Shown: positions 12,006 to 39,503, counted from the first letter of the stretch. The stretch: DNA of 64,000 bases from Thermofilaceae archaeon (GCA_038727095.1 JAVYWK010000006.1:1-64000); one strand, 5' to 3'. Program-made: numbers and translations. Notes: a model not told the origin generated them from the letters alone.

Positions 12006-14255
12006 TTAAACTGTGGGTGTGCGCACTTGGGTTTTTCGGGAGGCCCAGTCTGTTCTCGCCTCCTCGACTGGTTCGATCTCGACGAGTATGTTGTAGGGCT
12101 CATGCCCTCTCCTGAGAACCGCTCGACCTACGATCCCTGCTTGGAACCACGATAGTTCGATGGGGGTTAGGGCCATGTAGACCTGCGTCATAGATACGTA
12201 GTCAGGGTCGCTGTGAGAGAGAGCGAGCTTCCAGCCCGCAACCCTCCTAAACGCCTCAGGTACGTCGCCCCACTCGTGGGTGAGCATGACGACTGCCAGC
12301 CCAAACTTCCTCAGCATCCTCGCCATCGTGACGATCAGAGGCTCCGTGTAACCTGGAGGGGGAAGCATGAAAAGGTGACCTTCATCAACGATGAGCAGCC
12401 ACCTCGGCTCACTCAAGCCACGAGCTATGGCGCAGTCGCGGAGCTGAGATAGTAGGAGGTCGAACACGACCCTCTGCACCTCTACCGGCATTGCCGTGTA
12501 GCTCCCCTTCGCTGTGCTACCCATACAGAGTACAAACGGCTTGCCCGCTGAGATGAGATCTTCTAAGCTGATTTCCTCTCCCATGAAGTAGTCCTGAAGC
12601 CTCTCCAGCTTCCACTCAAGGCTCGTACCCCTCGCAAGCTCCACTAGCTGTTGGAAGCTCGAAACCCCCCTTGCGAGGCACCTCCTCAGCAGGTGGGCCT
12701 CGTACTCGCTAAGCGGGCTTAAGTACGTAAGCGCTCTCTCAAAGTCGCTGGCGCTGCAGAGGAGCGGGTTAAAGGGTCGGTCCCAAAGATCCAGTATCTC
12801 AAATTCGAACTTCTCGGCGAAGGCCCTGTACTCCCCCGAGGGGTCGACTATGATCGGGGTGATCCCCTTCTCCATCGCCCTCAGCGCGAGGGTTCGGGCC
12901 GTGGTGCTCTTGCCGGAGCCCATCGGACCCACGATCAGCCCGTGCACGTTCTCCAGCAAGTCCAGCTCCAGCCAAACCTCCTCGTCCCTCCTCACGCCCC
13001 GACCCAGGTAGATGGCCCTCGGCGTCCTCCTTGTGCGCGGTCTAAAGAATGTGTAGGGGGCCAACCAAGCGAGCTGGCAGCTGATCTTCACTTGAGAATC
13101 TTTTAGCGGGTAGCCTACTAAAGTGGTAAGCCGCTTGAGCGTTCGTGGTCTTCCCACTAGGGACACCAGCGAGAAGTCTCTTTCAAGCCCTAGCGGCTCG
13201 TAGCGCCACACATCACCGCTAACGAAAATCGCAACCGAGAAAGGTTTGGACCCCCCCTCAAGAGCGCGGTTCATGTTGATCACGTTTAGGGCCTTAAACT
13301 CGTCAGCTAGCTTGCTGACTCCTGCTCTACCTGCTTCAAGCACTTCAAGCGCCCTCTTGACGCTGGCTCCGAAAGTCGCCAGGTCTTCCGGGACTAGGAG
13401 AGCTAGCAGGGAATCATCGCTCCACGTGAAGGCGCTAGCAAAGCTCCTCACAATGGATGCGGCTCCAGCCTGGTCAGGTACTTCCGCGATGCTGTACCTC
13501 AAAGGCATCAGGGTCTTCGGTGCTAAGAGGCAACGTCCACCTCTCACTATCCTCAGCTCCAGCGGAATTAGTGGCAGAGGTATCAGCGCCAAAGGCGCGA
13601 GAGCCGGGTATAGCACGAGGGAAAGCGTTAAGGTTCCCAGCATTAGTACGCTAAACATGGGTAGAGTGGGATGGAAATTCCTCTCATTTAATTCGGCGAC
13701 CGCGGAGAGAACTTCGAGAGGTTCAACGGGCCTTGTGCGAACGCCTAAACCTAACAAGCGGCGCTGTAGTTCCGCCAGCACATGCGGCACGCTCTTCAGA
13801 GCTTCAACCGCGGATTCCGGTAGTACAAAGTTTATCTTCAGGTAGTAATTACGCAAACCGTTATCGGAAGAAGATACGATATTCACAGTCGCTGAGGGAA
13901 GGTACAGTGAGGATACGAAGTGGGTGGCCATCTCGCCCAATCTCACATCGCTCTCCGGTAGATCTACACTATCTACCTTCAAAAAGGCAGATAATACGTA
14001 ACCTCTTCTTGTTTTTAACATTATGTAATCTTTTTTAACTTTAACCTCGGTGATGGGGTCTAGAAGCAAGCTTTTTTCTCCGTAAACCAGTTCGATGAGC
14101 TCAACTCTCTTAGTATAGATGTAGTAGCCCCCCAGTATCAGAGCTAGGATAGCGGGAGGTAGGACTGTTCTACCGGCTATAGCCGCAATCAGGGCCAGCA
14201 TCATCGCGAAGAAGAGAATGATCGCTGAAGCTCCCGGTAGGTACACGCCGCTCAC
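12006..14255 (-). CDS. Membrane-anchored VirB4/HerA-like ATPase (CedB/TedB-like); start probably GTG at 14255
   Basis: N-terminal TM pairs; Walker A GPMGSGKST, IVDPSGEY, Walker B LIVDEGH, arginine finger LRKFG; GTGA overlap and GGAGG upstream. Confidence 0.82.
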   Translation of the reverse strand: MSGVYLPGASAIILFFAMMLALIAAIAGRTVLPPAILALILGGYYIYTKRVELIELVYGEKSLLLDPITEVKVKKDYIMLKTRRGYVLSAFLKVDSVDLPESDVRLGEMATHFVSSLYLPSATVNIVSSSDNGLRNYYLKINFVLPESAVEALKSVPHVLAELQRRLLGLGVRTRPVEPLEVLSAVAELNERNFHPTLPMFSVLMLGTLTLSLVLYPALAPLALIPLPLIPLELRIVRGGRCLLAPKTLMPLRYSIAEVPDQAGAASIVRSFASAFTWSDDSLLALLVPEDLATFGASVKRALEVLEAGRAGVSKLADEFKALNVINMNRALEGGSKPFSVAIFVSGDVWRYEPLGLERDFSLVSLVGRPRTLKRLTTLVGYPLKDSQVKISCQLAWLAPYTFFRPRTRRTPRAIYLGRGVRRDEEVWLELDLLENVHGLIVGPMGSGKSTTARTLALRAMEKGITPIIVDPSGEYRAFAEKFEFEILDLWDRPFNPLLCSASDFERALTYLSPLSEYEAHLLRRCLARGVSSFQQLVELARGTSLEWKLERLQDYFMGEEISLEDLISAGKPFVLCMGSTAKGSYTAMPVEVQRVVFDLLLSQLRDCAIARGLSEPRWLLIVDEGHLFMLPPPGYTEPLIVTMARMLRKFGLAVVMLTHEWGDVPEAFRRVAGWKLALSHSDPDYVSMTQVYMALTPIELSWFQAGIVGRAVLRRGHEPYNILVEIEPVEEARTDWASRKTQVRTPTV

Positions 14256-17200
14256 CTCCTCAAAAGGCGGAGGTTGTCCTCCACCCAAATGCTTAGTTTA
14301 ACATAGTAACCAATAATTTTAACTGCAACTCTTTGCCACCGCTCAAGCGCATCTAGGAGATCTGCGCTTTCAGGGCGAACGCTCCTGCGTAAAGCCAACT
14401 TTAAGTCGGAGCATTCGGCTAAAAGAGCTTCTATCGTTTTAATTGCAATGATCAAGCTCTGATGTAGACCCTCCAACCGACCTATGAGCTCCCTTCGCTC
14501 AGCTTGAGCCTCAGCAGCTAAAGCAACACTCCTACCGGGTGGGGGCAGGAGCCCGTAGTGCTCAACCGATTTTAACCGCTCATCGACCTCAACGAGCGTG
14601 TTCGCGAGCTCTCGGTACACTCTTTCAAGGAAACCACCCGCAGAACGCACCAATGCTTGATCCTCGAAGAGCGGCCTAAGTCTCCTAACCGCAATTTCGA
14701 ATATCTCTCTCACGAGCGCCTCCGCTCCTCCCTGTTTTTCGGAAAGAGCCGCAGCCCAACCAGCCCAGTACATGTCACCGCTAAGGATCAACGCATCTAC
14801 CGCGCCGCTCAGATCCATGTCCCTATCCCCCCGCAGAGCATCCGCGTAGCCTTGCAGGAAGCGTGTTGCTTGCTCATCAACTCCTTCATCCCTCAGAGCA
14901 TTACTGAGGTCAAAGCTCGTGACCCCTCTCGCCCACATGCTTGCAACTTCGAGCAGTAAGCTCTTGACCTCAGGGTGAAGACGCGGAAGGAACCATGGCT
15001 CCCTACCCTCGGCTAGCTCGCTCGCCGCTCTTATGAGCAGGTAGCGCCAAGGTTGGTTACGCTCAAGCGACGTAAGCCATACCGCGCCCAGATCCGTTTC
15101 AAACCCCCTTTCTCGACTTACTCTAGATAGGGTGGTGGCTATGGCTTCCCACCACGCTGTTCTAACCACGGAATCACCGATTGCCGCCTTATCTGCGATT
15201 GAAAGCGCAGCTGCCGGATAACGCTCGAGTAGTTTGAAAAACTCTTTTCGAGTGAAACCCTCTGCGGCAGCTAGTCCAATGATCCTGGCGGCGAGCTCCT
15301 CCACCGATCCAAAGGACGCTCCTCCGAGGTAGCGATCGTATCTGGCTATAAGGTGCGGGCGTTGCGACGCAAGACGCTCGAGCTTGGATAAGCTCCTTGA
15401 AGGATCACGCCCCGCGAGGACATCGCGCGCAACTGCCGCGAGGTACTTCTCGAACTCCAACTTGGGCTTCTTCATCCTCCTCAAATCTCCTTCCGACATT
15501 TCCTTCGGGTAGAGTAGGTGATAGCCCCTAACGAAATGCTTTGTGTAACGAACTGTTTGAGTTAACGTTCCGAGCCGAGCTTCGAGGAGTAGCGAAGCTG
15601 CGTAAAGGGTATCGCTAGCAATGATGAGCTTCCGCGCTACAGGGTCAGTTAGAGCTAGACGGAGCTTCTCAACGTACGGAACGTACAGCCGCACTCTGCT
15701 TAAGGCGGTTCTTTCCGCTACTTCGCTTGCAACTCGAAGCAGTGCAGGCAAGGGGTGGAGACTGTGGTACCTCGACCATGCCTGAAAGAGCTTTGCAGTC
15801 GCTCTTCTGAGCCGGCTACGTCGGTGGTCTAGACCCCTTCTGAGCTGCTCTATGCTCATCCGAATTTCTACGGCTGGATCGAGAGCCGTGAGGATCAGAG
15901 GCTCCCTCAAGCTTCGAGGATCGTGCCCGAATTTAACCGTGATAGCGATCTCCATAAACAGCGATGTAAAACTCCTACCAATCTGCTCAAGATTATAGAG
16001 CGTTGAGCGCAGCGGCTTCAATATTGGAGGGAGATGGAGTGCGCCGAAGCCTCCAATGACACTGGACAGGAATGCTGTTGCGACTACCACGGCGAATAAA
16101 AGAACGGCTAACTGGGCTAATAGACCAACATGCTCTAAAAGGGAGGCTGCGCTGATTCTTAAGCGTTCAGCCACGGTACCGTTGAGGATCGGTTCGAGGT
16201 CCCCATCGTATAGCAGGCCCGCAATTACGCTTTCGTTCATTAGGGTAAATGCTGACAGAGCGCGCTCAGCTGGGCACCTTTCATCCCCACTTAGGAGCGA
16301 GAGTATAACCTCAAACCTTTCCGGTGGAAAACCGGATTTCGCAGGCCCAATGACAGCCGGTTCTACGAGATCCCCGTAGTACCTAGCATGCACAATAACT
16401 TTGGGAACGTTAGACCTGGGCCAGAGCGATCTAGAGTAGAAGACGCTTCCGTCGACCTCAGCAGCTTCAATCATCCCTCTACCGTAAAGGCAGACTTTCA
16501 CTCCACTGTAGTTAGTTAAAGGTGGCATGGAGGCATTAATCAACCGGGCCCATTGATCGAACCATAGGGCTTCGATCGACCTAGCGTCGGGGAGTGATGG
16601 TTCAACGTAGCTGATCTCGCAGCTTAAAATAGGTTCGAGTTCAACGATTTCATTGCCTACTTTCAACCTGCTCATACCCTTCTTTAGAACAGTCGGTATC
16701 CCATTTTCGCATATAGCATTAAAATCGAAGTGCCCCTCAATCCGAGCAGTTACTTCTATGAACTTTACATTAATATCAACTATTTCTCCAGATGATAATC
16801 TGATCTTTATAGTTTCATTCCCTTCCCTCCATTCACAATAGCTTGGATGAAGAATAGCAACTATCTGATGATCACTAAGAAAGTTACTTACGTTGTACCA
16901 TGGTAGCGGGCCGGTAAACCTCTCTGAACCGTCAAGAACGAAGAAACCTCTAGCCCTCCAGTATCCCCATCCTTTTCCTACATCCGTTGCATCATAGAAT
17001 AAAACCAAAGCATCCTCTGAAGCGCTCACATTTACGGTGACCCATGTAATATTTTCTACGTGAACTTTACACTCAGGCACCGTTCCTGGCAACCCATCAC
17101 ATGCTACCTTTAGTTGAGCCCCCTTCTCCGGCCTGAACGTAGTTTTTAATACCGGCAGCCAGTAACCAGCGTAACTAACGCCCAGCGCAACATAATCTGA

Positions 17201-18016
17201 ATCTCTTTCCAGGTACCATTGACCGAGCGGGCGAGCTAACACCCTTCCTCCTTGGTCAGAGTACACTAACACTCCCCCAGGAGGGATTGGGTACAGCTCC
17301 TCATGAACGGAGATCACTTCTTCCCTAATGCTAGCTTTAGGTGTTCGGAATAATCCCTGTAAATGGATTGCACCTACGTCGTCAACCCTCTCAGGAGCTC
17401 TTTCGGGTTGGCCGAAGCGGGGGGTTAGTAAGTTTACTATAGCAGGTAAAGCTAAAGACACTGATACAGCGATTGCGAAGAGGGTCGCTCCTAGCCTCCT
17501 AGTTCTTCTGGGTATCATCAGAAGCCCAGCAAATGGGAAAAGCGAACGAAAAAGTTGAGATATCTCAGCGATCTTTATAAAGAGCTGACCTACGAACCGG
17601 TAAACACTCGATATAGCAACGTAAGCGTTTGATAAGCTCAGTAGAGCGTTGATACCACTCTGAGCTAAGAATGCCGTTGCGACGAACCCTTTAACTGCGA
17701 GGAGTACGGAAATAGCAGCCAAAGCTATGGAGCTGACAATCGATAAATAGTAGCTCCATTTCACGGCGTTGGTTAATGCCTCCTCCGCTGATTTAATTAA
17801 TTCTACCCCATTTCTTCGCGCGAGATCTGTTGAAAAGAGTTCAATCGGTGCACCGCTCAGTCGTGAAGCAGCCTCCACCAAATCTATCGTTACCAAGAGA
17901 ACTGAAATTATAAAAAATGCTACTGGCGCTACTAAACGCTCGCCTTTACGCTTCGCGAAAACTACGGCGAATGCCGCCTCAGTTACTAAAACCATCGTAA
18001 AGGCATCCGCTATCAT
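14252..18016 (-). CDS. Large CedA/VirB6-like polytopic membrane protein with inserted soluble domain; start probably ATG at 18016
   Basis: N-terminal TM cluster with IPRTRRLGATL, a large beta-rich soluble segment, another TM, then a helical tail; ATGA overlap. Confidence 0.62.
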   Translation of the reverse strand: MIADAFTMVLVTEAAFAVVFAKRKGERLVAPVAFFIISVLLVTIDLVEAASRLSGAPIELFSTDLARRNGVELIKSAEEALTNAVKWSYYLSIVSSIALAAISVLLAVKGFVATAFLAQSGINALLSLSNAYVAISSVYRFVGQLFIKIAEISQLFRSLFPFAGLLMIPRRTRRLGATLFAIAVSVSLALPAIVNLLTPRFGQPERAPERVDDVGAIHLQGLFRTPKASIREEVISVHEELYPIPPGGVLVYSDQGGRVLARPLGQWYLERDSDYVALGVSYAGYWLPVLKTTFRPEKGAQLKVACDGLPGTVPECKVHVENITWVTVNVSASEDALVLFYDATDVGKGWGYWRARGFFVLDGSERFTGPLPWYNVSNFLSDHQIVAILHPSYCEWREGNETIKIRLSSGEIVDINVKFIEVTARIEGHFDFNAICENGIPTVLKKGMSRLKVGNEIVELEPILSCEISYVEPSLPDARSIEALWFDQWARLINASMPPLTNYSGVKVCLYGRGMIEAAEVDGSVFYSRSLWPRSNVPKVIVHARYYGDLVEPAVIGPAKSGFPPERFEVILSLLSGDERCPAERALSAFTLMNESVIAGLLYDGDLEPILNGTVAERLRISAASLLEHVGLLAQLAVLLFAVVVATAFLSSVIGGFGALHLPPILKPLRSTLYNLEQIGRSFTSLFMEIAITVKFGHDPRSLREPLILTALDPAVEIRMSIEQLRRGLDHRRSRLRRATAKLFQAWSRYHSLHPLPALLRVASEVAERTALSRVRLYVPYVEKLRLALTDPVARKLIIASDTLYAASLLLEARLGTLTQTVRYTKHFVRGYHLLYPKEMSEGDLRRMKKPKLEFEKYLAAVARDVLAGRDPSRSLSKLERLASQRPHLIARYDRYLGGASFGSVEELAARIIGLAAAEGFTRKEFFKLLERYPAAALSIADKAAIGDSVVRTAWWEAIATTLSRVSRERGFETDLGAVWLTSLERNQPWRYLLIRAASELAEGREPWFLPRLHPEVKSLLLEVASMWARGVTSFDLSNALRDEGVDEQATRFLQGYADALRGDRDMDLSGAVDALILSGDMYWAGWAAALSEKQGGAEALVREIFEIAVRRLRPLFEDQALVRSAGGFLERVYRELANTLVEVDERLKSVEHYGLLPPPGRSVALAAEAQAERRELIGRLEGLHQSLIIAIKTIEALLAECSDLKLALRRSVRPESADLLDALERWQRVAVKIIGYYVKLSIWVEDNLRLLRR

Positions 18017-18807
18017 ATTCTCAAGCGCGAAATGACCGTATCCGCTAACCCTCCTGCTGCAACGGCTATCCCGACACTTAATACTCCCGCTATGCCTATA
18101 GAGATCGAGATCCAAGCTGCGAACTCTCCCATCACTTTCGCATCACTGACGACCTCGTTTACCGCTCCGGCAAAGTATTGAGCTATTCCAGAGAGAGGAA
18201 TTCCGATGTATTTGAACTTTAACGCCTGAGAATTCTCCAAGAAGTAGGGTGCTGCAGCTCCTACAACCACTTCAAGGCTTGCTATGCTCACGGCCAGAGA
18301 AGCCCCTAGCCTCCTCACCCTGCTAACGCCTGCCAACACTACCCCTAGGCTTGAAAGCGAAGATCCAAAAAACTCGCAAAAGCGAGCCGCGATTAAGAGT
18401 GTGCTTGAGAGGGCCACGAGATAACTTGTAAAAATATTTGCTAGGCTACTAGCCGCGTACCATGTTGAGGCAAGAGGTGAGAGGATGCCCGTCAGCGTAA
18501 GATCCCGTGCAACGTTTGCTAGATCCATTACGTAACTCGTGTAACGGTCCCTAGCGGCTGCGTAGAAGGCTGCAGCAGTACTGGGCTCAAGGTAACTTAT
18601 TCCAAAGGCTCCCACTAGAAGAGGTGCCGATACTAAGATGGAGGCTAGGATCACACCCGTTACGCAGGATTCTATAGCACTGTATATGACCTCGTAGCCT
18701 CTTGCTTTATGCTGAGGCGAAGGTAGATTAAGGAGCCAAGCTCCGTAGGCCAGCTCAGCCGCAACTACGGTTGTTGCGATAGCGTAGGGGAGAAAACTAA
18801 TCGTCAT
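18013..18807 (-). CDS. CedA/TedA-like membrane protein
   Basis: About six TMs; VSRVRRLGASL motif shared with the downstream gene; sits in operon with VirB4-like ATPase. Confidence 0.62.
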   Translation of the reverse strand: MTISFLPYAIATTVVAAELAYGAWLLNLPSPQHKARGYEVIYSAIESCVTGVILASILVSAPLLVGAFGISYLEPSTAAAFYAAARDRYTSYVMDLANVARDLTLTGILSPLASTWYAASSLANIFTSYLVALSSTLLIAARFCEFFGSSLSSLGVVLAGVSRVRRLGASLAVSIASLEVVVGAAAPYFLENSQALKFKYIGIPLSGIAQYFAGAVNEVVSDAKVMGEFAAWISISIGIAGVLSVGIAVAAGGLADTVISRLRI

Positions 18808-18814
18808 ATCTACC

Positions 18815-19207
18815 TCAGGGCCTACTGAAAATCTCGTTCCAGTTTACGGCAAAGGGTGTTCCCTGTGGTAGCAACCCAATTGCCACCAGTATATCCGGCA
18901 ACCAGGCTGCGAAAGCTAGCGCAATTAACCAATAGAGGGGACCTTCAAGCGCTTCTATGAGCTCTCTTTGCGCTGTGGCAGTTGATAACGCGCCTCCCAG
19001 TTGTTTTCTTAGTACTGCAAGCGCGCTTTTTATGAAAGCTGTTACAAAAATTAGTATGCCCGTCGCCGTCACCGTTATTTTGACTGCTAAAACCGAGTAG
19101 TTTCTTACTGTATCCCAATTCACGGTAGGCCCTTGCGCCTGAACAAGTTCGGTATAGAGAACGACTGTAGTAAGGAGAATGGATATGATTTTGCTATATT
19201 TTGTCAT
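18815..19207 (-). CDS. VirB2-like conjugative-type pilin (TedC/CedA1-like); start probably ATG at 19207
   Basis: Class I signal peptide (MTKYSKIISILLTTVVLYTELVQA|Q) followed by two hydrophobic helices; first gene of the VirB6/VirB4-like operon. Confidence 0.65.
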   Translation of the reverse strand: MTKYSKIISILLTTVVLYTELVQAQGPTVNWDTVRNYSVLAVKITVTATGILIFVTAFIKSALAVLRKQLGGALSTATAQRELIEALEGPLYWLIALAFAAWLPDILVAIGLLPQGTPFAVNWNEIFSRP

Positions 19208-19348
19208 CGCATGACACCCTTCCTCACTCCTCCTACTCCTACCACTCATATGAATCCGCGCACAGAGTTGATCTAAAATTAATTTTAATCTTGCGCCAAC
19301 AGATGAATGAAAGTAATCACCTAGCATTCCACAATGCGGACACGAAAG

Positions 19349-31881: not shown

Positions 31882-31883
31882 CC

Positions 31884-32360: not shown

Positions 32361-32395
32361 TCTGTTATTTTTATTCCTTTCGCCGCGTGAGGCTT

Positions 32396-32740
32396 TCAGG
32401 AGCGGGTTAAAGCGTCGAGAAGCTTCTCCTCCAGCTCCCCGATATCTTCCGCCGCTACGAGCCGGGCCCTCCCGCGCGGAGGAGGGACGCTTGGCGCTCC
32501 GCCTAGAACCGCTATCACCACGTCCTCTCCCACGTCGAGGGCTTTAGCGAGCTCCGCGAGCAAAGCTGAAGGTTCGGCGTGCGTCAGGGAGACGTAGACC
32601 CTGCGCCCCCTCCCCTCGACGGCAAGGTCGAACTCGTGCAAGTAGCCGCTAAAACCCCTCACCTTACCCTCAATAACAGCGAAGCCTGCGGCCTCCATCA
32701 CCCCCCTGATCCCCCTCTCAACTTCCTCCACCGCTCCCAC
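32396..32740 (-). CDS. Small restriction-endonuclease-like (Mrr-like PD-(D/E)XK fold) protein, likely catalytically degenerate
   Basis: GFAV..GKVRGFSGYLHEFDLAV motif; the expected E-x-K is replaced by VSLT; start inferred at GTG 32740. Confidence 0.5.
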   Translation of the reverse strand: MGAVEEVERGIRGVMEAAGFAVIEGKVRGFSGYLHEFDLAVEGRGRRVYVSLTHAEPSALLAELAKALDVGEDVVIAVLGGAPSVPPPRGRARLVAAEDIGELEEKLLDALTRS

Positions 32741-33102
32741 CCCTGCTTGCCTTGACGATGGGGGCTTTTGATGTTGCACTTACCGCTGCAGCCTTTCTGC
32801 GCCCCCTTTTCCCGGTCTTGGCGAAGACCAGTAGGCTGCGGCTGTGGGGGAGCACCTCGACGCCCTCCACCCAGTACCCCCTGCTCTTCCTCCTCGCGTA
32901 AACCCTCACCAGCCTATACCCGTTGCTCCTGCAGACCTTGGAGACGAGGTCCAGGATACGGGGTAGGTTGCTGGGTCCTAGGCCGGTCGCCCGCATCAGC
33001 TCCGATGGGGGGGACGGTGAAGAAGCGGCCCCGGGCCCTCTCAGCCCTCCCCCGCAGGACGGCTTCAACCGCCCTCTCCGGGTCTACGGGCTTCCTTGCC
33101 AC
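32718..33102 (-). pseudogene. Putative DNA-binding (wHTH-like) gene split by a frameshift at a C7 run
   Basis: ORF 32914..33102 (MARKPVDPERAVEAVL...FFTVPP) and ORF 32718..33068 (PSELMRATGL...) fuse if the G7 run at 33007-33013 is G6. Confidence 0.65.
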
Positions 33103-33191
33103 AAAGGTTAGGCTGCAAACTATTATTTATTTCTATCGTCGAGTTGGGCATAATAAACATCAGGTGCAAGCCTCCCGTGGAAAGCATTCAG

Positions 33192-33600
33192 GTGAAAGCC
33201 TCCCGGCTGCTGAAGGTCTTAGAGGAGAGGATCCTGGAGCTGGAGCACGGTACATCTGCAGCCAGGATCGCGGCCATCTGCCTGAGGCACGGCGTTCCAC
33301 CCCTCTCTCTGAGAAGGGCCCGGATAGAGGGGGTGGTGCTCAGGATAGGCTCCCGCTCCATCCCCTTGAGCGAGATGGATGCAGTAGTGCTGAAGCCGTG
33401 GGTTGGCAGCCCTCAGGGGTTGAGGACCATGGCTTACCACACGCACAAGGTGCTGAAGGATTACGGGTTGAAGGTGTACGACGTCCACCTGCTGAGGAGG
33501 ATCGCTGAGGGCAAGCCACCCCGCAGGATCCCCCTCAGGCTGCTAAAAGCCCTCGAGCAGCTGGAGCACTTCAGCAAGGAAGAGAAAAAGAAAGATCGAT
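33192..33600 (+). CDS. Degenerate tyrosine-recombinase-like fragment; 3' end unclear because the frame stays open to 34103, antisense to a pilin
   Basis: AICLRHGVPPLSL (box I-like, no Arg), RSIPLS, VLKDYGLKVYDVHLLRR (HxLR box II-like). Confidence 0.4.
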
Positions 33601-33620
33601 TTTATTCGAACTCTTTGTTT

Positions 33621-34070
33621 TTACGGCTTTGCTACGGCGAAGCTGGTCTGGTAGCCGTCCCTGGTCTGCAGAGTCGCGAGAGCGCCATCAGGGAACTGGT
33701 CGAGGTCCACGTTGTCAGCGGTGTAGACGAGGGAGATGCTGTCACCGGGGGCCAGCTTCAGGCTTGCCCCCGTCACGATCGAGGTTGGGCTCCCGAACGT
33801 GATACCCGCCTTAGTCTTGTTCTGCACGATTACGATAGAATTAGTGAGGTTCACGTCAGCCGTCCCGTCGTTCTTGAAGGTGACCCTGAGCTGCACCCCA
33901 TTCTGGGTGGCGTAGAGGGTGGGCTGCCCGATGACCGTCAGGGAGACCTGCCTGACGCCCCTAGCGGTCGTAGAGTAGATGAAGTAGGCTGCCAGGGCTG
34001 CGGCAACGACGGCTGCGATAACGATTATGACGGTCACGATTGGCGGCATCGCACCCCTTCTCTTCATCAA
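33621..34070 (-). CDS. Type IV pilin (major pilin paralog)
   Basis: MKRRGA-MPPIVTVIIVIAAVVAAALAAYF; VTFKNDG and L.PG.S motifs. Confidence 0.85.
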   Translation of the reverse strand: MMKRRGAMPPIVTVIIVIAAVVAAALAAYFIYSTTARGVRQVSLTVIGQPTLYATQNGVQLRVTFKNDGTADVNLTNSIVIVQNKTKAGITFGSPTSIVTGASLKLAPGDSISLVYTADNVDLDQFPDGALATLQTRDGYQTSFAVAKP

Positions 34071-34089
34071 CTCTCACTGCGTACGACCA

Positions 34090-34266
34090 CTATTTATTCT
34101 TAATCCCTGTTCCTTCCCTCAACCTGAGGAGCTCGATCGCTCCCTCATCGTCGAAGCCGTACACGCTGAGAGCAGCGTACACCCCCCTGCGGAGCTCCTC
34201 CAGATCCCCGTCGTCGAGAGCGGAGCTGCGAGGCTTCTCCCGCGCGAAGAGAGACTCGCTTAGCAC
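34090..34266 (-). CDS. Small 58-aa hypothetical protein, absent from the ORF track
   Basis: GTG start, MLSESLFAREKPRSSALDDGDLEELRRGVYAALSVYGFDDEGAIELLRLREGTGIKNK*; AT-rich TATA-like tract about 25 nt upstream. Confidence 0.5.
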   Translation of the reverse strand: MLSESLFAREKPRSSALDDGDLEELRRGVYAALSVYGFDDEGAIELLRLREGTGIKNK

Positions 34267-34317: not shown

Positions 34318-34560
34318 CTAGCCGATGTCGATGAAGATGGACTCCATCTCTTCAACCGCCCTGCTCAACCCCCCAGCTTCACCGCTCCCCCTCCTCCCCG
34401 GCAGGAGGCTCCTAGCCCCTCTTCCGGCTTTCCTCGCCTGCTTCTCCCTCCTCTCAGCCTCCTTCACTGCTGCCTTAGCCGCCTTCCTCATCTCCTCGAT
34501 TTCCCTTTTGAGCGGATCCTCCTCTGAGGCGAAACCGAACAGCCTCCTCAGGCTCTCCAT
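34318..34560 (-). CDS. Small charged coiled-coil protein
   Basis: TGATG-coupled to the ATPase gene. Confidence 0.55.
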   Translation of the reverse strand: MESLRRLFGFASEEDPLKREIEEMRKAAKAAVKEAERREKQARKAGRGARSLLPGRRGSGEAGGLSRAVEEMESIFIDIG

Positions 34561-36104
34561 CAGGACACCACCTCCTCCGGGACGATAGGTTCCATCCTCT
34601 CGAAGGGTACGCCGTCAACTCTCGCTCCGAGCCCTTGCTTGATAACCCCGTACACCTTCTCGGCTTCGCTCGCGCCCTCGAGCGAGAGCTGCAGCTCCGG
34701 CGGGAGCATCTGCAGGAAGTCCTCCTCCGGCAAGTACCGCCCAGCCTTGTAGACTGGCACGAAGCCCCTCGCATCTACCACATACACCGCCTGCACCCCG
34801 CGCTGGATCCCGCCCTCCGACGACACCGTTTTCCCGCAGACCACCCAGACTCTCACGGCGTCCAGCACTGAAGCTTGGAGCCCTGTAGCTTGTATGAGCG
34901 TGTTCAACCGCTTCAGCGCATCGCCCAGCTCCCTGCTGTGCGCAGTCGTCAGAACGGGGATGCCGCTGCCGGCCGCCTCGAACCAGCTCGGCACCTCCTC
35001 GCCCCTCAGCTCCCCCACTACCAGGAGGTCCGGCCTGTCGTAGCGCCGAGTTGCCCTAATGTTGGCCGTCACGCTCCTGTCACCGAAAGAAAAGTACGAG
35101 ATGACGTTCGGTCCCCGGACTTGCGTAGCCACCTCAGGCTCCTCCTCAACGATGCTGACCCTCAGTCTGGGCCACAGGCCCAAGATGGTGCTGAGAACAC
35201 CTATGAGAGCGGTGGTCTTGCCAGAGCCCGGGGGGCCGACGAACGTAATGCTGTTAGGCGAAGCGGCTAGTGCAACGAGCCTCGCTAGGAGCAATGGCTC
35301 GGCCTTGAACGGCTCCACTTTAACAACCCTGGCAGCGGAGATCTGCCAGCCCCCGGCCAGCTGCGGCAGTGCGAGGTTCACTCGCCACCCCCTGAACTCG
35401 CCGCTGTCCTGAGGGTTCCTCTCGGACAACGGGATCCCAGCCTCGATCGCGATGCGCTGGACCAGCCTCTCCACCAAGAGCTCCCGGGGCAGCTCGATGG
35501 TGTAGCGCCTCCCCTCGATGCCGGCCGTGATGTGGACCTCCCCGTCCAGCTCCCTAATGAAGATCTCCTGCGTCCCGGGGTAATCCACTAAGGGTTCCAG
35601 CGGCCCCCACGCCCCCTCCCTCTCCGCGTAAACCCTCACCACGCCGTCACCTATGATCAGGTAGCCCGACGGCACCCTGACGGGACTGCCGGCGATGGGG
35701 GGCAGCGGAACTTCAGCCCCCTCCAGCCTCCCAGCCTCGCGGAGCCTTACTCGCGGAACGCGCCACACCCTCCTGAGCGCGGGGGCAAGCCTGGGATGCC
35801 TCACCGCTTGAGCTGGCGTCCCCACCGGTTCTGCCTCAGGTTGAACCGCTTCAGCTTGCGCCTCCATTGCTTCGGGCTGCAGTCCCGTTGTTGCCACACT
35901 TTTAGCGGCGCCCGCGCTCGAAGGGGCAGGCCGCGCTGCGGATATTAGCTCCACCTCCTCTGCACCACGCTCCCCCTCAACACTGGGAGGAGGAGGTTGA
36001 ATTGGAGGCTTCATAGAGATGATCTCCCCTTCAGAGGCTACGCCTAGCTTGTGATGGGGAACCTCCTCGGGCTTGATCTTCAGCTTCACTTTGGTTAGCG
36101 GCAT
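34560..36104 (-). CDS. Type IV pilus assembly ATPase (TadA/CpaF/VirB11 family)
   Basis: Walker A GPPGSGKTT, acidic box VEEEPE, Walker B LLVVGELRG, His box TTAH; low-complexity N-terminal extension. Confidence 0.9.
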   Translation of the reverse strand: MPLTKVKLKIKPEEVPHHKLGVASEGEIISMKPPIQPPPPSVEGERGAEEVELISAARPAPSSAGAAKSVATTGLQPEAMEAQAEAVQPEAEPVGTPAQAVRHPRLAPALRRVWRVPRVRLREAGRLEGAEVPLPPIAGSPVRVPSGYLIIGDGVVRVYAEREGAWGPLEPLVDYPGTQEIFIRELDGEVHITAGIEGRRYTIELPRELLVERLVQRIAIEAGIPLSERNPQDSGEFRGWRVNLALPQLAGGWQISAARVVKVEPFKAEPLLLARLVALAASPNSITFVGPPGSGKTTALIGVLSTILGLWPRLRVSIVEEEPEVATQVRGPNVISYFSFGDRSVTANIRATRRYDRPDLLVVGELRGEEVPSWFEAAGSGIPVLTTAHSRELGDALKRLNTLIQATGLQASVLDAVRVWVVCGKTVSSEGGIQRGVQAVYVVDARGFVPVYKAGRYLPEEDFLQMLPPELQLSLEGASEAEKVYGVIKQGLGARVDGVPFERMEPIVPEEVVS

Positions 36105-36139
36105 GGCTCCACCCTTCCATCCGCTCTCATTACGTCCAG

Positions 36140-36541
36140 CTAGACGCCTAGGGTCCTGAGGACCTTCCTTGCAGCTCGCACCACTTCAAGGCGCCTCTGC
36201 CTCTCCTCTATCTCCTTCACCAGCCTCTGCTCCTCACCGTCCAGCGTCTGTGCATAGACTTTGAGCGATTCAAGCGGCCTCACGTCGTAGCCCAGCTCCT
36301 TCAGCGATTCAACCAGCTGAGCAAACGTAATGGGGTGCGGGACAGTGATGAACTCCTGCGGCCTCGCAGCCGTGGGTTGAGGGGGCTGCGGTGAAGCTGG
36401 GAGCGCGGTAGGCGCCTGAGGAGCAGCTGGCTGAGAGGCAGCTGGGGACGCCGGGGGGTTCGCTCCCTTCAGCCTCTTGTGCTCCTCGAGGAAGTCCCTA
36501 ACCGGTATGTCCCTCTTCTCCCCACCCTTCTTCTCCTGCAC
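36140..36541 (-). CDS. Hypothetical protein with Pro/Ala/Gln linker and C-terminal coiled coil
   Basis: Lies between the MinD/ParA-like gene and the pilus ATPase. Confidence 0.6.
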   Translation of the reverse strand: MQEKKGGEKRDIPVRDFLEEHKRLKGANPPASPAASQPAAPQAPTALPASPQPPQPTAARPQEFITVPHPITFAQLVESLKELGYDVRPLESLKVYAQTLDGEEQRLVKEIEERQRRLEVVRAARKVLRTLGV

Positions 36542-36565
36542 GGAGTTATTGCGATACTTGAGTAC

Positions 36566-37249
36566 TTATTTCTTTCGGAGGAGAAGGTGGGCCAGCTTAG
36601 CTATGGCGGCGTCGAACTCGCCGCTCGTGTAGTTCAGGACCCTCAGCGTGCCGGGACCAAGCCTTGATACGGCCGGCTCGTAGGGTACAACGACGTAGTC
36701 TGCGCCAGCCTTTTTGCACCAGTAGGCCACGGTCTTCGAGTAGTAGTCGACCACGCTCTTCGGGTAGGGGCGGGGGCAGTTCAAGGCGACGACGACACGC
36801 TTATCAGCAAAAGTGAACAGCGAACCCTCAACGGAAGCTGGGTTTGGCTCTGTAACAACTAGGATCGAATCTGCCTCCAGAATTAGGGGAAGATAGCGGT
36901 CCACAGCGTCAACATCCGTTAAAGCGGGGATGTCTACCACGACTAGCGCGTAGCGCTGTAACCATGTGCGTAGAGCGTTTATTACCCGCTCTGGTGAGCG
37001 CAACGGGCCCCTGTTAACCGCAACTGTCAGCCTGAAATTGTCGTGCTCCACCTCCCTTAGGGATGCATCGGGATCATCCCTCAGGTAGGGAGGAGGGGTG
37101 TCACCCAACAAGTATACTGTAGCACCGCCCTCACTGCTAGCATCAACGAGCAGAGTGGGGACGCTAGCAGCCGCCGTTACGGAAAGAGAAACAGCTAGGG
37201 TTGTTTTACCCGTGCCACCCTTGGAGCCGCTAAACGTTACTATGAGCAC
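36566..37249 (-). CDS. MinD/ParA-family ATPase; start probably GTG at 37249
   Basis: Deviant Walker A GSKGGTGKTT, LLVDA, VVVDIPA, LVVTEP motifs. Confidence 0.85.
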   Translation of the reverse strand: MLIVTFSGSKGGTGKTTLAVSLSVTAAASVPTLLVDASSEGGATVYLLGDTPPPYLRDDPDASLREVEHDNFRLTVAVNRGPLRSPERVINALRTWLQRYALVVVDIPALTDVDAVDRYLPLILEADSILVVTEPNPASVEGSLFTFADKRVVVALNCPRPYPKSVVDYYSKTVAYWCKKAGADYVVVPYEPAVSRLGPGTLRVLNYTSGEFDAAIAKLAHLLLRKK

Positions 37250-37282
37250 GATTTCAAAGGATATTATAACTAATTTAAGCTT

Positions 37283-37338
37283 TACTCGGCGAGTATCGGG
37301 ATAGTACAGCACCGTAGTAAGGATGCTACACCGTAGTA
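37283..37338. promoter_or_regulatory. Palindrome plus direct repeats between divergent promoters (candidate operator/centromere-like site)
   Basis: TACTCG-G-CGAGTA at 37283-37295; CACCGTAGTA at 37310-37319 and 37329-37338; TATA-like tracts at 37271-37280 (-) and 37367-37377 (+). Confidence 0.5.
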
Positions 37339-37396: not shown

Positions 37397-37735
37397 GTGA
37401 GCGAAAAGAAAGGCTCAAACCCAAATGAGAATACTGTTGATGATGAAATAGTAAAAGAATTAATTCTAAGTGGGCGCCATTCTCAGATGGTTGTGCTTGT
37501 ATTTTTATATAAAGTTGGTAAAGCCACTTTGTCAGACATACAACGAGCTTTAACGGGAGGAAAGTATCGAGCTCAGTATAATTGGACCTTGAGTGTTATA
37601 AGCGAGTTAAAAAACTTAGATCTTATATATGAAGATCAAATCTTTATTAAAGAAAAAATAAGAGTTAGATTATTTGATTTAACAGAAAAGGGTAGAAGGA
37701 TAGCAAGAAAGCTCAGCGAGATCTTACAATTGTAA
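37397..37735 (+). CDS. Winged-helix DNA-binding protein (PadR/MarR/AspA-like)
   Basis: ATLSDIQRAL...ISELKNLDLI...RLFDLTEKGRRIA wHTH pattern; AT-rich coding. Confidence 0.75.
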   Translation: MSEKKGSNPNENTVDDEIVKELILSGRHSQMVVLVFLYKVGKATLSDIQRALTGGKYRAQYNWTLSVISELKNLDLIYEDQIFIKEKIRVRLFDLTEKGRRIARKLSEILQL

Positions 37736-37777
37736 CGCCATAGAAATTTTAAAATACTCCCGCGCCTTTGCCCACCG

Positions 37778-38668
37778 ATGTCGTCAGTGAGCTTAATTCC
37801 AATTGAAAAGCTGTTCCCCTCTTCAGCCAACGTGAGGCTGTACGTCTCACCGGAGGCTGTGAGCAAGCTGGCGGAGGACATAGCCATGAGGGGCCTTCTG
37901 CACCCCCTGATCGTAAGGCCTGAAGGAAGCGGCTACGGCGTCGTCTGCGGCCGCATGCGGCTCGAAGCGATAAGGCTCCTGAAGAAGGAAAAACCAGAAG
38001 TCTTCGAGAAGCTATTTCCGCAGGGTATACCCTGTGTAGTGAAGGAGCTGAGCGACACGGAGGCCCTCGAGTTGTCTCTCAGCGAGAACTTGAGGCAGAA
38101 CACTTTGACACCGGAGGAGCGCGGCAGGGGTTTAGCTAGGCTCTACGAGATGGGCGCGAGCGAGGACGAGATCGCCGCAAGGCTACAGGTTGAGCTGGAG
38201 GAGATCAAGCGGTTCGTCCGCTTGTACGCGCGGTTGAGGGAGATCGCCCCCGTCGTAGCCGAGTCAAAGCCCGGTAGACCACGTGAAACCAAACCTAAAA
38301 AGAGGGTAAGTAGGACCGGTATGGTAAAAGTTGTGCGAGCGATTGAGGACCTCGCAGCACGTGGCGTGTTGAGGGAACCAGAGGAAACAGTGAGGAAGAT
38401 AGCGGATTTAGCGGCGGAGAGAGGGCTAAGCACGAGTGAACTGGACATACTGGCTAGAAGGCTTAGAGAAAAACCTGAACTTGTACAAACACCCGAAAAG
38501 CTAGTGGAGGAGATATCAAGAGAGGAGATGGTGGAACGCGTAGTGCTCCTAAAGCGTCATGTTGTGGAGTACGTAGAGGCCTGGGCGAGCGAACGAGGTT
38601 TAACTTTTAGCGAGGCGCTCAACGAGATCATCGGTGAGTTCATCAGCCTGAAAAGGGCGGCAGCTTAA
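37778..38668 (+). CDS. parB: ParB/Srx-family protein with HTH and C-terminal RHH-like segment
   Basis: IPIEKL.P...NVR, GLLHPLIVR, VVCGRMRLEA, SENL...LTPEE; C-terminal VVLLKRHVVEYVEAWASERGLTFSEALNEII. Confidence 0.85.
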   Translation: MSSVSLIPIEKLFPSSANVRLYVSPEAVSKLAEDIAMRGLLHPLIVRPEGSGYGVVCGRMRLEAIRLLKKEKPEVFEKLFPQGIPCVVKELSDTEALELSLSENLRQNTLTPEERGRGLARLYEMGASEDEIAARLQVELEEIKRFVRLYARLREIAPVVAESKPGRPRETKPKKRVSRTGMVKVVRAIEDLAARGVLREPEETVRKIADLAAERGLSTSELDILARRLREKPELVQTPEKLVEEISREEMVERVVLLKRHVVEYVEAWASERGLTFSEALNEIIGEFISLKRAAA

Positions 38669-38684: not shown

Positions 38685-39503
38685 GTGTCTATACTCGCTG
38701 ACTCGATACTCGAAATCCTCGAGGAGAAGGGACAAGTAGCTGTTATCGGAAGTCATCCCGGGTTTAGAGAGAAAGTTATCGCTAATACGATCCAAGCCGC
38801 CGCTAAAGCTTATGGAGTGATCGCGGTCATTGATTGGTACGGAGCGTACAACGTAGATGCGATACAAACTGTTGAGCCGACTTTACCTTACAGTAGCACA
38901 GCAAAATACCTCCCGCTCGCCGTCTCCTCAATGCACGGCCTCTATAGGATTGGAGCATTAGTAGAGGGGCTTGTGTACGAAGCTGTGCAAAGTTCCGATA
39001 GTTTCCACCAAGTAGTATCGCGACTCGAAGCTCTTTCTACACGAAGAGTTTGGGCGCGCACGATCCTTTCAAAAATAGCGCTATTGAAAGATTATTTTGT
39101 AGAAAACATCATCCTACCGACTAAGTTTCGAGTAAACCTATTCAAGGCGCCGGTTTTGATCAGACGCCCCCTTTCTCAGCTTTGGGTAGCTCTCGTAAGT
39201 GAAACAGTAGCAGCGCAGAAAGGTTTGCTTGTTGTGAGTGAAGCTGGACGTGCGATTAAGCGTGGCTGGTGGGTCTGGAGTCTCATCGACGATGCTAGAG
39301 TAAGAGGGGCTAGGGTTTTACTAGCCGATAGTCGTCTCCTTAGAGCCTACCTGCAAAACGCTCTTGTTTTCACGGATTACAGGCCTGAAGAAGCACTGGC
39401 GGCACAAAGGTATAGGTTGCAAATACTGACTAAGAAGTGGGTGAAGGGGAAAGCCCTGCTGGTTAAAGATCCTGAAGAACCACGCTTACTCAATATAGAG
39501 TAG
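38685..39503 (+). CDS. Inactivated HerA/VirB4/VirD4-like P-loop protein
   Basis: VAVIGSHPGFREK (broken Walker A), VIDWYGAY, LLVVSEA (broken Walker B), DARVRGARVLLADS. Confidence 0.6.
   Translation: MSILADSILEILEEKGQVAVIGSHPGFREKVIANTIQAAAKAYGVIAVIDWYGAYNVDAIQTVEPTLPYSSTAKYLPLAVSSMHGLYRIGALVEGLVYEAVQSSDSFHQVVSRLEALSTRRVWARTILSKIALLKDYFVENIILPTKFRVNLFKAPVLIRRPLSQLWVALVSETVAAQKGLLVVSEAGRAIKRGWWVWSLIDDARVRGARVLLADSRLLRAYLQNALVFTDYRPEEALAAQRYRLQILTKKWVKGKALLVKDPEEPRLLNIE

Follow-up and report, generated by a model that had tools for sequence, protein, structure and literature searches.

Introduction

In Sulfolobales, ups and ced are located in separate loci, and co-regulation is the only link between the pilus that makes contact and the translocon for DNA. 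To our knowledge, no domesticated conjugation machines other than Ced and Ted are known. We have investigated a locus of about 25 genes, at positions 12006-39503 of a stretch of DNA from a Thermofilaceae archaeon (GCA_038727095.1, JAVYWK010000006.1:1-64000), in which Ted-like translocon genes, a type IV pilus, adhesins, parA and parB are found together. The whole stretch, referred to as the window, is 64,000 nucleotides (nt) in length and corresponds to contig C6:1-64000 of a 1.86-Mb, 52-contig genome which is 92% complete. On balance, we consider it probable that the locus is a chromosomal island encoding one composite cell-surface machine for DNA exchange between cells.

In the available text on the Ted system (PMC9905601), Ted loci carry ParA/MinD and HerA-like genes, TedC is cleaved between AVA and QA, and TedC homologues are reported from five genera of Thermoproteales, the term 'Thermofil' being absent. 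The same text relates the small pilin to the N-terminus of the channel protein in both the CedA1/CedA and VirB2/VirB6 pairs. Neither a Ted-like system in Thermofilaceae nor a fusion of pilus, ParB and Ted genes is described in the available parts of PMC9905601, PMC11823120, PMC11868833, PMC4858521 and PMC5797428, whose supplementary tables may list homologues; likewise, the accessible part of PMC4858521 reports no type IV pilus locus linked to ParB or VirB4. PMC13705601 makes no mention of Thermofil, ParB, VirB4, Ted, HerA or DNA transfer. Among the papers listed in a literature search, only a Nitrosocaldus preprint, on thaumarchaeal integrative conjugative elements (ICEs), combined a Thermofil term with VirB4. 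Names given to the locus proteins in public sources are 'hypothetical', 'DUF87' or 'THEP1' only.

Results

Ted-like ATPase and membrane proteins

Four minus-strand genes of the locus resemble components of Ted. Open reading frames (ORFs) are given with their length in amino acids (aa) and, in brackets, the basis of the assignment.

12006-14288, minus strand: TedB-like VirB4/HerA-family membrane ATPase, 760-aa ORF, likely start GTG at 14255 (Pfam, hhalign)
14252-18115, minus strand: 1287-aa membrane protein, likely start ATG at 18016, giving 1254 aa (transmembrane (TM) prediction, hhalign)
18013-18807, minus strand: TedA/CedA/VirB6-like polytopic membrane protein, 264 aa (hhalign, AlphaFold 2 (AF2) fold match)
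18815-19207, minus strand: TedC/VirB2-like candidate pilin, 130 aa, the ORF running to 19327 (alignments, hhalign)

A reference Ted locus was obtained by searching five Thermoproteaceae-type genomes with the ATPase profile and taking 20 kb around the best match, in genome G093. One ORF in this locus matches the solved TedC pilin 8dft_A at 7.5e-64; a 310-aa polytopic protein (TedA) is encoded directly downstream and a 685-aa membrane ATPase (TedB) upstream, and the locus also holds a ParA-like gene, a small P-loop ATPase and RadA. A RadA-type recombinase was also observed at L059:15226-16164, inside a Pyrobaculum-type Ted locus (NCBIfam RadA, 1.3e-55).

The 760-aa ATPase matches Pfam DUF87/HerA at 36.4 bits (7.5e-9). 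Its best NCBIfam matches are VirB4_plasma (7.9e-11), CedB (6.6e-8) and CedD (6.9e-7), all far below cut-off, the CedB and CedD models aligning only around the Walker A motif; real TedB likewise remains far below the NCBIfam cut-offs, and the matches of the window ATPase are no worse than those of TedB. Profile comparison with hhalign aligned the window ATPase family with TedB over the ATPase domain (98.1%, E 8.4e-14), and the two proteins are reciprocal best matches when each other's genomes are searched. Both have the same layout of hydrophobic segments, at residues 11-54 and 207-248 in the window ATPase and 48-89 and 205-234 in TedB. These comparisons indicate that the 760-aa ATPase is homologous to TedB of the Pyrobaculum-type Ted system. 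The NCBIfam CedD model was tried as a means of finding TedD and discarded as not discriminating, with 116 of 120 genomes matched and none above cut-off.

The 264-aa family aligned with the TedA family over 245 columns at 98.0% (E 2.4e-13). The 264-aa profile consisted of 22 sequences, 9 aligned locus members and 13 of 23 database proteins, 10 near-duplicates being left out; the TedA profile of 15 sequences contained every TedA match in the loci found, with ORF over-extensions trimmed. Controls gave 0.6-0.8% with reversed alignments and 0.1-1.4% with the polytopic 418-aa family encoded elsewhere in the locus. Shallow profiles had given 0.3% for the 264-aa protein against TedA and 0.2% for the small 130-aa protein against TedC, values superseded by the deeper profiles. 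The AF2 model of the 264-aa protein (predicted local distance difference test score 82.5, predicted TM-score 0.72) was compared with solved structures. In Foldseek, the eight best matches were all TrwI/VirB6 of R388 (best E 8.1e-3, TM-score 0.34), and in VIA the VirB6 chain 7o3v_F ranked first of 48,161 chains (Z 10.4, root-mean-square deviation 7.0 over 230 residues; next Z 8.5), although VIA matches with Z under about 13 may lack specificity when the protein is helical. Residues 1-71 of the model also matched the CedA1 pilus (8dfu_B) in VIA with Z 6.0. Profile comparison thus makes the 264-aa protein a TedA homologue, an assignment which the modelled VirB6 fold supports without carrying it. 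The family is small, with only 23 proteins among 5.8 billion clusters. A TedA protein search produced no matches in 40 other genomes of the order, and TedA and TedC together produced none in the window's own genome.

The start of the small gene was placed at 19207 because its homologues are 127-148 aa long. The resulting 130-aa protein has a signal peptide ending in VQA, followed by QG and two hydrophobic helices, and all nine aligned family members share a signal peptide ending in A-x-A before Q/E-G together with the two helices. Its gene immediately precedes the TedA-like gene, an arrangement shared with tedC and tedA. The 130-aa family (27 sequences, comprising the 9 aligned rows and 18 of 20 representatives, an 854-aa repetitive protein and a 62-aa fragment having been dropped) was compared with the TedC family (12 of 14 matches; a row that was a tedA ORF and an 86-aa fragment were dropped), giving 62.8% and E 7.1e-5. 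The same family aligned with the N-terminus of the 264-aa family at 89.5% (E 2e-6). Reversed controls remained at 0.2%. The second alignment mirrors the CedA1-CedA and VirB2-VirB6 relations and is in agreement with the VIA match between the N-terminal part of the 264-aa model and the CedA1 pilus. An AF2 model of the 130-aa protein is a helical hairpin. Searches of PDB sequences with the 170-aa long form of the ORF, with its profile and with the 264-aa profile yielded nothing usable.

The 1287-aa protein consists of an N-terminal multi-TM part, a large outer domain and a helical C-terminal part, and matches no family in Pfam or NCBIfam. Its N-terminal columns 11-219 aligned with the TedA family at 66.4% (E 5.4e-5), and its top three ESM Atlas clusters carry the Pfam CedA1 family (PF27251) with a score of 0.83, which is a lead only. 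The N-terminal part is therefore probably a second TedA/VirB6-like domain, as judged from profile alignment.

Type IV pilus and adhesin genes

The pilus genes and adhesin genes occupy the following positions.

19349-21173, minus strand: four overlapping small ORFs of 109, 150, 249 and 107 aa, three with a pilin-like N-terminal helix (TM prediction, overlaps)
22069-29007, plus strand: surface/adhesin block of 490, 838, 197 and 762 aa, all of which begin with a signal or anchor helix (Pfam, orthologues)
29618-31407, minus strand: 105-aa pilin-like ORF, 78-aa ORF with two TM segments and 418-aa polytopic candidate diverged platform (conserved context)
31447-34070, minus strand: three pilin paralogues of 144, 158 and 149 aa and small ORFs of 127 and 116 aa (N-termini, TM prediction)
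34318-37312, minus strand: operon of a ParA/MinD/TadZ-like ATPase (248 aa), a 133-aa protein, a T2SSE pilus ATPase (514 aa) and an 80-aa protein (Pfam, NCBIfam)

The 514-aa ATPase matches Pfam T2SSE (PF00437) at 60.3 bits against a cut-off of 24.9 (1.7e-16); in NCBIfam its matches to a TadA-family model (3e-17), TrbB (1.5e-14) and VirB11 (3.6e-10) are all below cut-off. Gaps within its operon are -1 to 35 nt. In genome G004, the orthologue at G004:C12:1819-3161 is found as two overlapping pieces (query 55-293 and 279-510) in different open frames, which suggests a frameshift or an assembly error.

The pilin ORFs at 31447-31881, 31884-32360 and 33621-34070 each begin with K/R-G before a hydrophobic helix. 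Their N-termini read RRFGG, RRKGG or KRRGA, followed by PPIVTV and the helix, a fit to class III signals which was judged by eye; the match of the paralogues to Arch_flagellin (6.8e-4) is below cut-off. A duplication of 112 nt, 81% identical, is present at the 5' ends of the pilin genes. A single hydrophobic helix at the N-terminus is seen in seven further ORFs of the region. Within 33069-34103, the 552 nt between the 116-aa ORF and the pilin gene at 33621-34070 have no gene assigned to them, and a plus-strand 335-aa ORF (33096-34103) runs antisense through this pilin gene; its first 175 residues match no Pfam family.

The 418-aa protein is conserved beside the pilins and the pilus ATPase in nine loci, and its designation as a platform is a candidate one, made from context only. 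A genome-wide T2SSF search matches three other contigs and not the window. On contigs C27, C10, C2 and C15, the window's own genome has three other loci with canonical T2SSF platform genes and a single prepilin-peptidase gene of the Peptidase_A24 family (C15:34703-35026). The genome thus encodes several type IV filament systems, of which the present locus is one.

Orthologues of the small ORFs at 19349-21173 occur in the same order in G003, G009, G014, G010 and G020, and in the window the pilin-like genes among them (107, 249 and 109 aa) belong to the same operon as the Ted-like genes. Orthologues of the 150-aa ORF (19671-20123) are found only in G002 and G020, and joints in DNA contigs skip most of it (19680>19979 in 3 of 3 DNA runs; 19680>20105 in one run). 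The 150-aa ORF is thus a presence/absence polymorphism within populations. A further joint, X5 (19928>31260), was disregarded, as one of its sides is only 20 letters long.

In the adhesin block, the 762-aa protein contains Flg_new_2 in three stretches and its gene has three repeats of about 540 nt; Tandem Repeats Finder detected only a 15-nt repeat, the 540-nt period being beyond its limit. The block at 21200-29300, which has the highest GC content of the locus (0.632), runs in the opposite orientation to its counterpart in G003, G010 and G020, where the genes are arranged on a single strand. In G001, G002 and G004 the contig breaks off some 6 kb upstream of the ATPase gene, and metagenome contigs are fragmented in the adhesin zone. 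The inversion could be real, or could reflect a variable zone or an effect of assembly.

ParA, ParB and the HerA-like protein

The plus-strand genes next to the tRNA end of the locus are as follows.

37397-38668, plus strand: 112-aa conserved small protein and 296-aa ParB (Pfam, PDB sequences)
38685-39503, plus strand: HerA/VirD4-like pseudo-ATPase, 272 aa (ESM Atlas, alignment, hhalign)

The 296-aa protein matches Pfam ParB_N at 42.5 bits (6.7e-11), and residues 4-163 match Spo0J (1vz0) at 2.2e-19 as well as Noc and CTP-ParB structures, with conserved arginine-patch and ENLRQ motifs. It has an N-terminal domain of the CTP-binding type and a helix-turn-helix. The 248-aa protein matches Pfam AAA_25 and, more weakly, AAA_31 and CbiA; NCBIfam matches to ParA (6.2e-7) and a CpaE homologue (2.5e-6) are both below cut-off, and the motif KGGTGKT is a deviant Walker A. 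The two protein components by which a ParABS system is recognised are thus present in the window, in which a repeat search identified no parS site. parA is co-operonic with the pilus ATPase gene and divergent from parB. PDB sequence matches of ParB at E<=0.001 include no pNOB8 chain. ParB is thus, by its matches, of the Spo0J/Noc/CTP-ParB kind and is not demonstrably pNOB8-like, and the likeness of these genes to the pNOB8 aspA-parB-parA cassette, which the original prediction had drawn from the window sequence, was not borne out. The 112-aa protein has no match in Pfam, NCBIfam or PHROGs, nor a solved PDB chain at E<=1, so that its earlier label, winged helix-turn-helix (wHTH), rests on context only. 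Beside the gene for the 112-aa protein, a P-loop gene of roughly 200 aa (AAA_16/nSTAND3-like) is observed in G010 (L019:14138-14740) and G020 (L066, about 10250-10750); no counterpart is found beside it in the window.

The 272-aa protein scores 0.95 to TrwB_AAD_bind/DUF87 small-ATPase clusters in the ESM Atlas. BLASTP against a 300-aa P-loop protein found nothing, a result superseded by profile comparison, in which the protein aligned over nearly its full length with the small P-loop ATPases of the Ted locus and of G010 (96.1%, E 3.1e-9). The Walker A lysine, intact in the reference relatives, is lost in the copies from the window, G003 and G009, and Walker B reads SE and not DE. We therefore interpret the 272-aa protein as a conserved pseudo-ATPase, homologous to the small P-loop ATPase of the Ted locus, in agreement with its prediction as a dead coupling-type ATPase.

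Linkage in related genomes

At E<=1e-20, the ATPase family is detected in 16 of 120 genomes of the class, all 16 in the window's order: 9 of 22 genomes of family f1 besides the window's own, 3 of 4 in f8, 1 of 4 in f2, 2 of 2 in f4 and 0 of 79 in f9-f15. In half of the 16 genomes the pilus ATPase is encoded on the same contig within 24 kb of the TedB-like ATPase. Among the eight unlinked genomes, four have the genes on separate contigs and four have no pilus-ATPase match at 1e-30; contig sizes are known for six of the eight, and these contigs are short or interrupted in the adhesin zone, some 6 kb upstream of the ATPase gene. ParB is encoded no more than 10 kb from the pilus ATPase in 12 of the 20 genomes having it. 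The T2SSE ATPase, pilins, ParA, ParB and Ted-like genes are linked in four families of the order despite rearrangements.

In G003, of the same genus, one strand carries GH5, the tRNA, the 272-like gene, ParB and the 112-like gene, and the other carries, in order, ParA, the 133-like gene, pilus ATPase, pilins, the 418-like gene, minor pilins and adhesins, TedC-like and TedA-like genes, a 1282-aa gene, the ATPase gene and sua5; parA through the pilus genes to the TedB-like gene thus forms a single same-strand array. The genes from the platform to a 1403-aa gene form one overlapping array in G010, and the pilus ATPase, TedC-like and TedA-like genes are contiguous in G011. In G030 and G025, from other families, the gene set is kept on one contig. 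By comparison, three Pyrobaculum-type Ted loci (L059, L060 and L061, 20 kb each) have no match to the pilus ATPase or ParB. In G010, the locus additionally contains RadA (8e-62), a helicase resembling XPD and two further HerA-like ATPases, the RadA-type gene (Rad51 8e-62; L019:12175-13140) being directly downstream of the TedB-like gene. The radA-like genes of the window's genome are located on other contigs (C1 and C3).

The original prediction had proposed a single contact-and-DNA-exchange system and had named two findings that would speak against it. Neither was obtained, as the modules are linked in related genomes and the proteins encoded at 12-19 kb do resemble T4SS (type IV secretion system) components: TedB at 98.1%, TedA at 98.0% and VirB6 as best fold match.

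Chromosomal sites and mobility

The genes bordering the locus are as follows.

10924-12003, minus strand: sua5 (Pfam Sua5_yciO_yrdC 1.2e-63, Sua5_C 1.5e-31)
39513-39628, minus strand: tRNA-Arg(CCT) with intron-like extra sequence, 3' end towards the locus (Rfam 45 bits, gathering score 29)

The locus is found at three chromosomal sites: beside tRNA-Arg and a glycoside hydrolase family 5 (GH5) gene in genera g1 and g6, at a second site in G010 and at a third one in G020. The genes flanking it in G010 are separated by 39.4 kb, versus 2.6-5.9 kb in all four other complete genomes of the genus; the island thus formed in G010 measures roughly 35 kb. The genes on either side of the G020 array (L066:10753-20000, L084:1-6682, G020:C2) are adjacent to each other in the window's own genome (C15, 19806/20323). 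From the platform gene on, proteins of G020, which belongs to another genus, are 68-92% identical to those of the window, apart from the 490-aa protein (39%), whereas the flanking housekeeping ORFs (n=19) have a median identity of about 52%; most of these G020 locus proteins are closer to the window proteins than are the proteins of same-genus G003. This shows recent transfer between genera. The sites in G010 and G020, together with the excess identity in G020, lead us to conclude that the locus or large parts of it move between lineages, and do so without recognisable integration machinery.

At the tRNA/GH5 site the evidence is of another kind. This junction is conserved between g1 and g6, and the locus proteins of the two genera are 51-79% identical, versus 58-72% for the flanking Sua5, GH5 and helicase, a divergence like that of the flanks and compatible with vertical descent at this site. 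No family of integrases, relaxases or replication proteins was detected when 37 ORFs of the window and 10 of the G010 island were scanned with Pfam. The window contains no att-like copy of the tRNA, the longest match elsewhere being 12 nt, and the G020 junctions share no 11-mer and no att repeat. Thus, neither an integrase nor flanking att repeats, the marks of an ICE, were found, and with no relaxase family and a coupling-like protein whose Walker A is dead, no relaxase or active VirD4 of a conjugation T4SS is recognised among the 37 window ORFs. The absence of a relaxase, an integrase and an att copy agrees with the original prediction. Its further proposal of integration at the tRNA 3' end is not supported, as no att copy or integrase family was found, the junction is conserved in two genera and G010 and G020 have the locus at other sites with no tRNA at the junction; mobility as such is nevertheless backed by the island and the transfer evidence.

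The tRNA gene is 116 nt long and therefore carries extra intron-like sequence, roughly 40 nt in length; it includes CTCCTAA. ARAGORN reported no tRNA in the 64-kb window and so misses this gene. The syntenic tRNA in G014 and G009 is tRNA-Arg(CCT) of 73-76 nt, detected by both Rfam and ARAGORN, and in G003 a tRNA at the same place is seen by Rfam only. To the left, the locus is flanked by a GH116 beta-glucosidase-type gene (7867-10575), and to the right by a GH5/DUF5060 gene and a gene for a 1080-aa DEAD/Helicase_C protein (39738-41972 and 42611-45853); GH5 and the helicase also neighbour the locus in genus g6.

Gene content and composition

No housekeeping gene is present between sua5 and tRNA-Arg, and Pfam and Rfam confirm the flanks and content that had been predicted. 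Pfam was run on 29 ORFs of the region with curated cut-offs, and families were detected above cut-off in five of them (760, 762, 514, 248 and 296 aa). The predicted inventory was correct for the ATPase, pilins, adhesins, ParA, ParB and HerA-like protein; the 418-aa 'platform' and the 112-aa 'wHTH' had no family, fold or sequence match. PHROGs recovered only ParB families and three weak P-loop matches in the region. Spacing inside operons is an overlap or at most 56 nt, apart from gaps of 141, 247 and 552 nt. The likely starts at 19207, 18016 and 14255 are revised ones which give ATGA and GTGA start/stop overlaps, so that the TedA-like, 1254-aa and ATPase genes overlap by 4 nt each. The GC content of the four parts of the locus is 0.54, 0.63, 0.61 and 0.50, compared with 0.566 for the genome. 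A scan for sigma-70 promoters and terminators returned a single match to each and was disregarded, as the model is inapplicable to archaea. In a pattern search of the genome contigs, 599 stretches fitted the pattern and none was confirmed as a relative of the locus.

Metagenome and RNA-library traces

Of the words sampled from 12006-21900, about 70% are present in eleven hot-spring metagenome runs from five studies. Over 11500-19680, the likeness of contigs from three DNA runs is 99% or more; the same contigs are fragmented and polymorphic from 19.6 to 31 kb. RNA-library contigs from one library, 90-95% alike, fall on eight pieces of the operons, one of them bridging the TedC-like and TedA-like genes. 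These contigs are a hint of expression only.

Discussion

The locus probably encodes a composite machine in which contact and DNA transfer are combined. A type IV pilus, consisting of the T2SSE ATPase, three pilins, minor-pilin-like and adhesin proteins and a diverged candidate platform, would make the cell contact. DNA would be moved by a Ted-type, T4SS-derived translocon comprising the TedC-like pilin, the TedA/VirB6-like channel, the second TedA-like protein and the TedB/VirB4-like motor. ParB, its 112-aa partner, the ParA/TadZ-like ATPase and the dead HerA/VirD4-like subunit may select, position or regulate the DNA substrate or the machine. Our comparisons show the homologies themselves, the persistence of linkage among relatives, the arrangement into operons and the horizontal movement of the locus. 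From homology and context we infer DNA transfer, its direction and the roles of ParB and ParA; the single contact-and-DNA-exchange system that was originally predicted therefore holds as to linkage and Ted homology, and would extend to DNA transfer by inference.

A number of observations weigh against a composite machine. The TedC likeness of the 130-aa protein is weak at 62.8%, with the signal peptide contributing part of it, and in Foldseek and VIA its model matched generic helical hairpins, with no conjugative pilin among the matches listed. T2SSF matches none of the nine members of the 418-aa family at E<=1, and a PDB search with the profile of this family found nothing. The profiles used in the hhalign comparisons rest on 9-27 sequences. 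As parA shares an operon with the pilus ATPase gene, its product may be no more than a pilus factor of the TadZ type, and ParB may be a partition or regulatory relic. In G020, the array begins with the 112-like gene, continues through ParB, ParA, pilus genes and minor pilins and ends with the 109-aa gene; it has none of the four Ted-like genes and passes directly into housekeeping genes at the exact point where those four would follow. G024 likewise has pilus genes and ParAB, and a TedB-like match occurs in none of the three genomes of its family, f3. The RNA-library contigs stem from a relative and could be DNA carry-over, so that they are no proof of transcription. For Ted itself, according to the available text, transfer is an inference from pilus structure and homology (PMC9905601).

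The same mobility could indicate an integrative conjugative or mobilisable element, active or recent, whose mating pilus, Ted-like T4SS and ParAB partition serve mainly its own transfer. Occupancy of three different chromosomal sites (tRNA-Arg/GH5 in g1 and g6, and those of G010 and G020), the 39.4 kb between the G010 flanks versus 2.6-5.9 kb in four of four congeners, the adjacency of the G020 flanks in the window's genome and the 68-92% identity of G020 proteins versus a flank median of about 52% (490-aa protein, 39%) all suit such an element, and archaeal ICEs with VirB4, VirB6, VirB2 and ParB-like genes in tRNA genes are known from the available text of PMC5797428. We nevertheless regard it as unlikely, as the Pfam scans of 37 window and 10 G010 ORFs contain no integrase, relaxase or replication family, no att repeat occurs at the tRNA or G020 junctions, the g1/g6 divergence matches that of the flanks and fits vertical descent, and the coupling-type ATPase is catalytically dead in three lineages. 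Rather doubtful as well is a self-contained organelle for the exchange of chromosomal DNA, with pilus and translocon in one operon and ParB as selector, which spreads without an integrase by its own exchange. In this case the CTP-type ParB, with ParA and the dead VirD4-like adaptor, would load on specific DNA and hand it to the TedB-like motor, and the system would pass between genera by means of the exchange and homologous recombination which it brings about itself; spread of this kind would account for the three insertion sites, for identities that form a mosaic and for the lack of att sites.

The modules might alternatively be independent neighbours in a shared variable region, the pilus and adhesins serving attachment (for instance near glycoside hydrolases, GH116 and GH5 genes flanking the locus), the ParAB genes being a regulatory or partition relic and the Ted-like genes a separate apparatus. 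Pilus-ParAB arrays without Ted genes in G020 and G024, the Ted loci L059, L060 and L061 without a match to the window pilus ATPase or ParB, and three other T2SSF-bearing loci in the genome are in keeping with this. It becomes improbable in view of a linkage that persists across four families despite rearrangements, same-strand arrays with overlapping frames in G003, G010 and G011, and the co-operonic position of the 107-, 249- and 109-aa pilin-like genes with the Ted-like genes. Natural competence, in which the pilus captures free DNA and the TedA-like channel and TedB-like motor import it with no cell contact, is very improbable: large repeat adhesins and many tip-type pilin-like proteins suggest recognition of cells or surfaces, and the VirB2-like pilin candidate suggests a conduit between cells, even though the parts list of pilus, channel, membrane ATPase and DNA-binding proteins suits uptake as well as mating and Ced is described as an importer in the available parts of PMC11823120 and PMC11868833.

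As a composite DNA exchange machine, the locus would extend the Ted type to Thermofilaceae, with the contact pilus and the DNA translocon physically joined. The ParB, ParA and degenerate coupling-type ATPase beside them are a candidate answer to how donor DNA is chosen and delivered without a relaxase, and island-like behaviour in a locus in which no integrase was found is relevant to the spread of such systems. The full system is also present in a complete, single-contig genome of the family (G010) and may be experimentally accessible.

Comparison with known systems places individual features of the locus in different contexts. In bacterial Tad/Flp systems, TadZ (CpaE), a ParA/MinD-family ATPase, is encoded just upstream of the secretion ATPase TadA (CpaF). 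The locus has the same arrangement, and NCBIfam gives a TadA-family model and a CpaE homologue as best matches; however, these matches are below cut-offs, the pilins are archaeal-type and no TadB/TadC-type platform is recognisable. IncI R64 pairs a T4SS with a type IV thin pilus, and the IncP KorA-KorB-IncC genes place a ParB-family protein, a small DNA-binding partner and ParA beside transfer genes. In contrast to these plasmids, the locus has archaeal components, is chromosomal in every genome seen and has no relaxase, oriT, replication gene or integrase that was found. The pNOB8 cassette of a crenarchaeon encodes the small AspA, ParB and ParA close together. Genes for a small protein, ParB and ParA are also close together here; unlike in pNOB8, parA lies with the pilus ATPase and diverges from parB, ParB matches no pNOB8 chain and the 112-aa protein no solved chain.

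The ICEs of Thaumarchaeota, as described in the available text, resemble the locus in having VirB4-, VirB6-, VirB2-like and ParB-like genes in a tRNA-adjacent island, and differ in having 21-24 bp att repeats and VirD4-like ATPases, whereas the locus has no att and a degenerate coupling-type ATPase (PMC5797428). Likeness to Ted of Pyrobaculum calidifontis, in the part of PMC9905601 available, extends to the TedB-like ATPase with its layout of hydrophobic segments, the TedA-like channel protein, the small two-helix protein with a Sec signal directly upstream of the tedA-like gene, and the presence of ParA/MinD-like and small HerA-like ATPases; RadA beside the TedB-like gene is shared in the G010 version. 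Unlike Ted, the locus has an extra 1287-aa TedA-like protein, a catalytically dead small ATPase, and a type IV pilus, adhesins and ParB, which are absent from the three 20-kb Ted loci examined; there is no sequence-level match to TedA or TedC (0 of 40 other genomes of the order; own genome), and the window ATPase family occurs only in its own order (16 of 120 genomes of the class). Ced and Ups of Sulfolobales, in the available parts of PMC11823120 and PMC11868833, likewise combine a type IV pilus for contact with a T4SS-derived importer, have paralogous channel proteins (CedA, CedE) and paralogous ATPases (CedB, CedD), and include a ParB-domain protein proposed for DNA processing in the Sa. 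islandicus model; a pilin related to the N-terminus of the channel protein is a further likeness. Ced pilins have no signal peptides whereas the candidate pilin here has one (PMC11823120, PMC11868833), NCBIfam CedB and CedD match only around Walker A and far below cut-offs, and both modules are here in one locus, partly in one operon. Thus, the locus is a variant of the Ted/Ced kind, joined with a type IV pilus and a ParB module and behaving as a mobile island.

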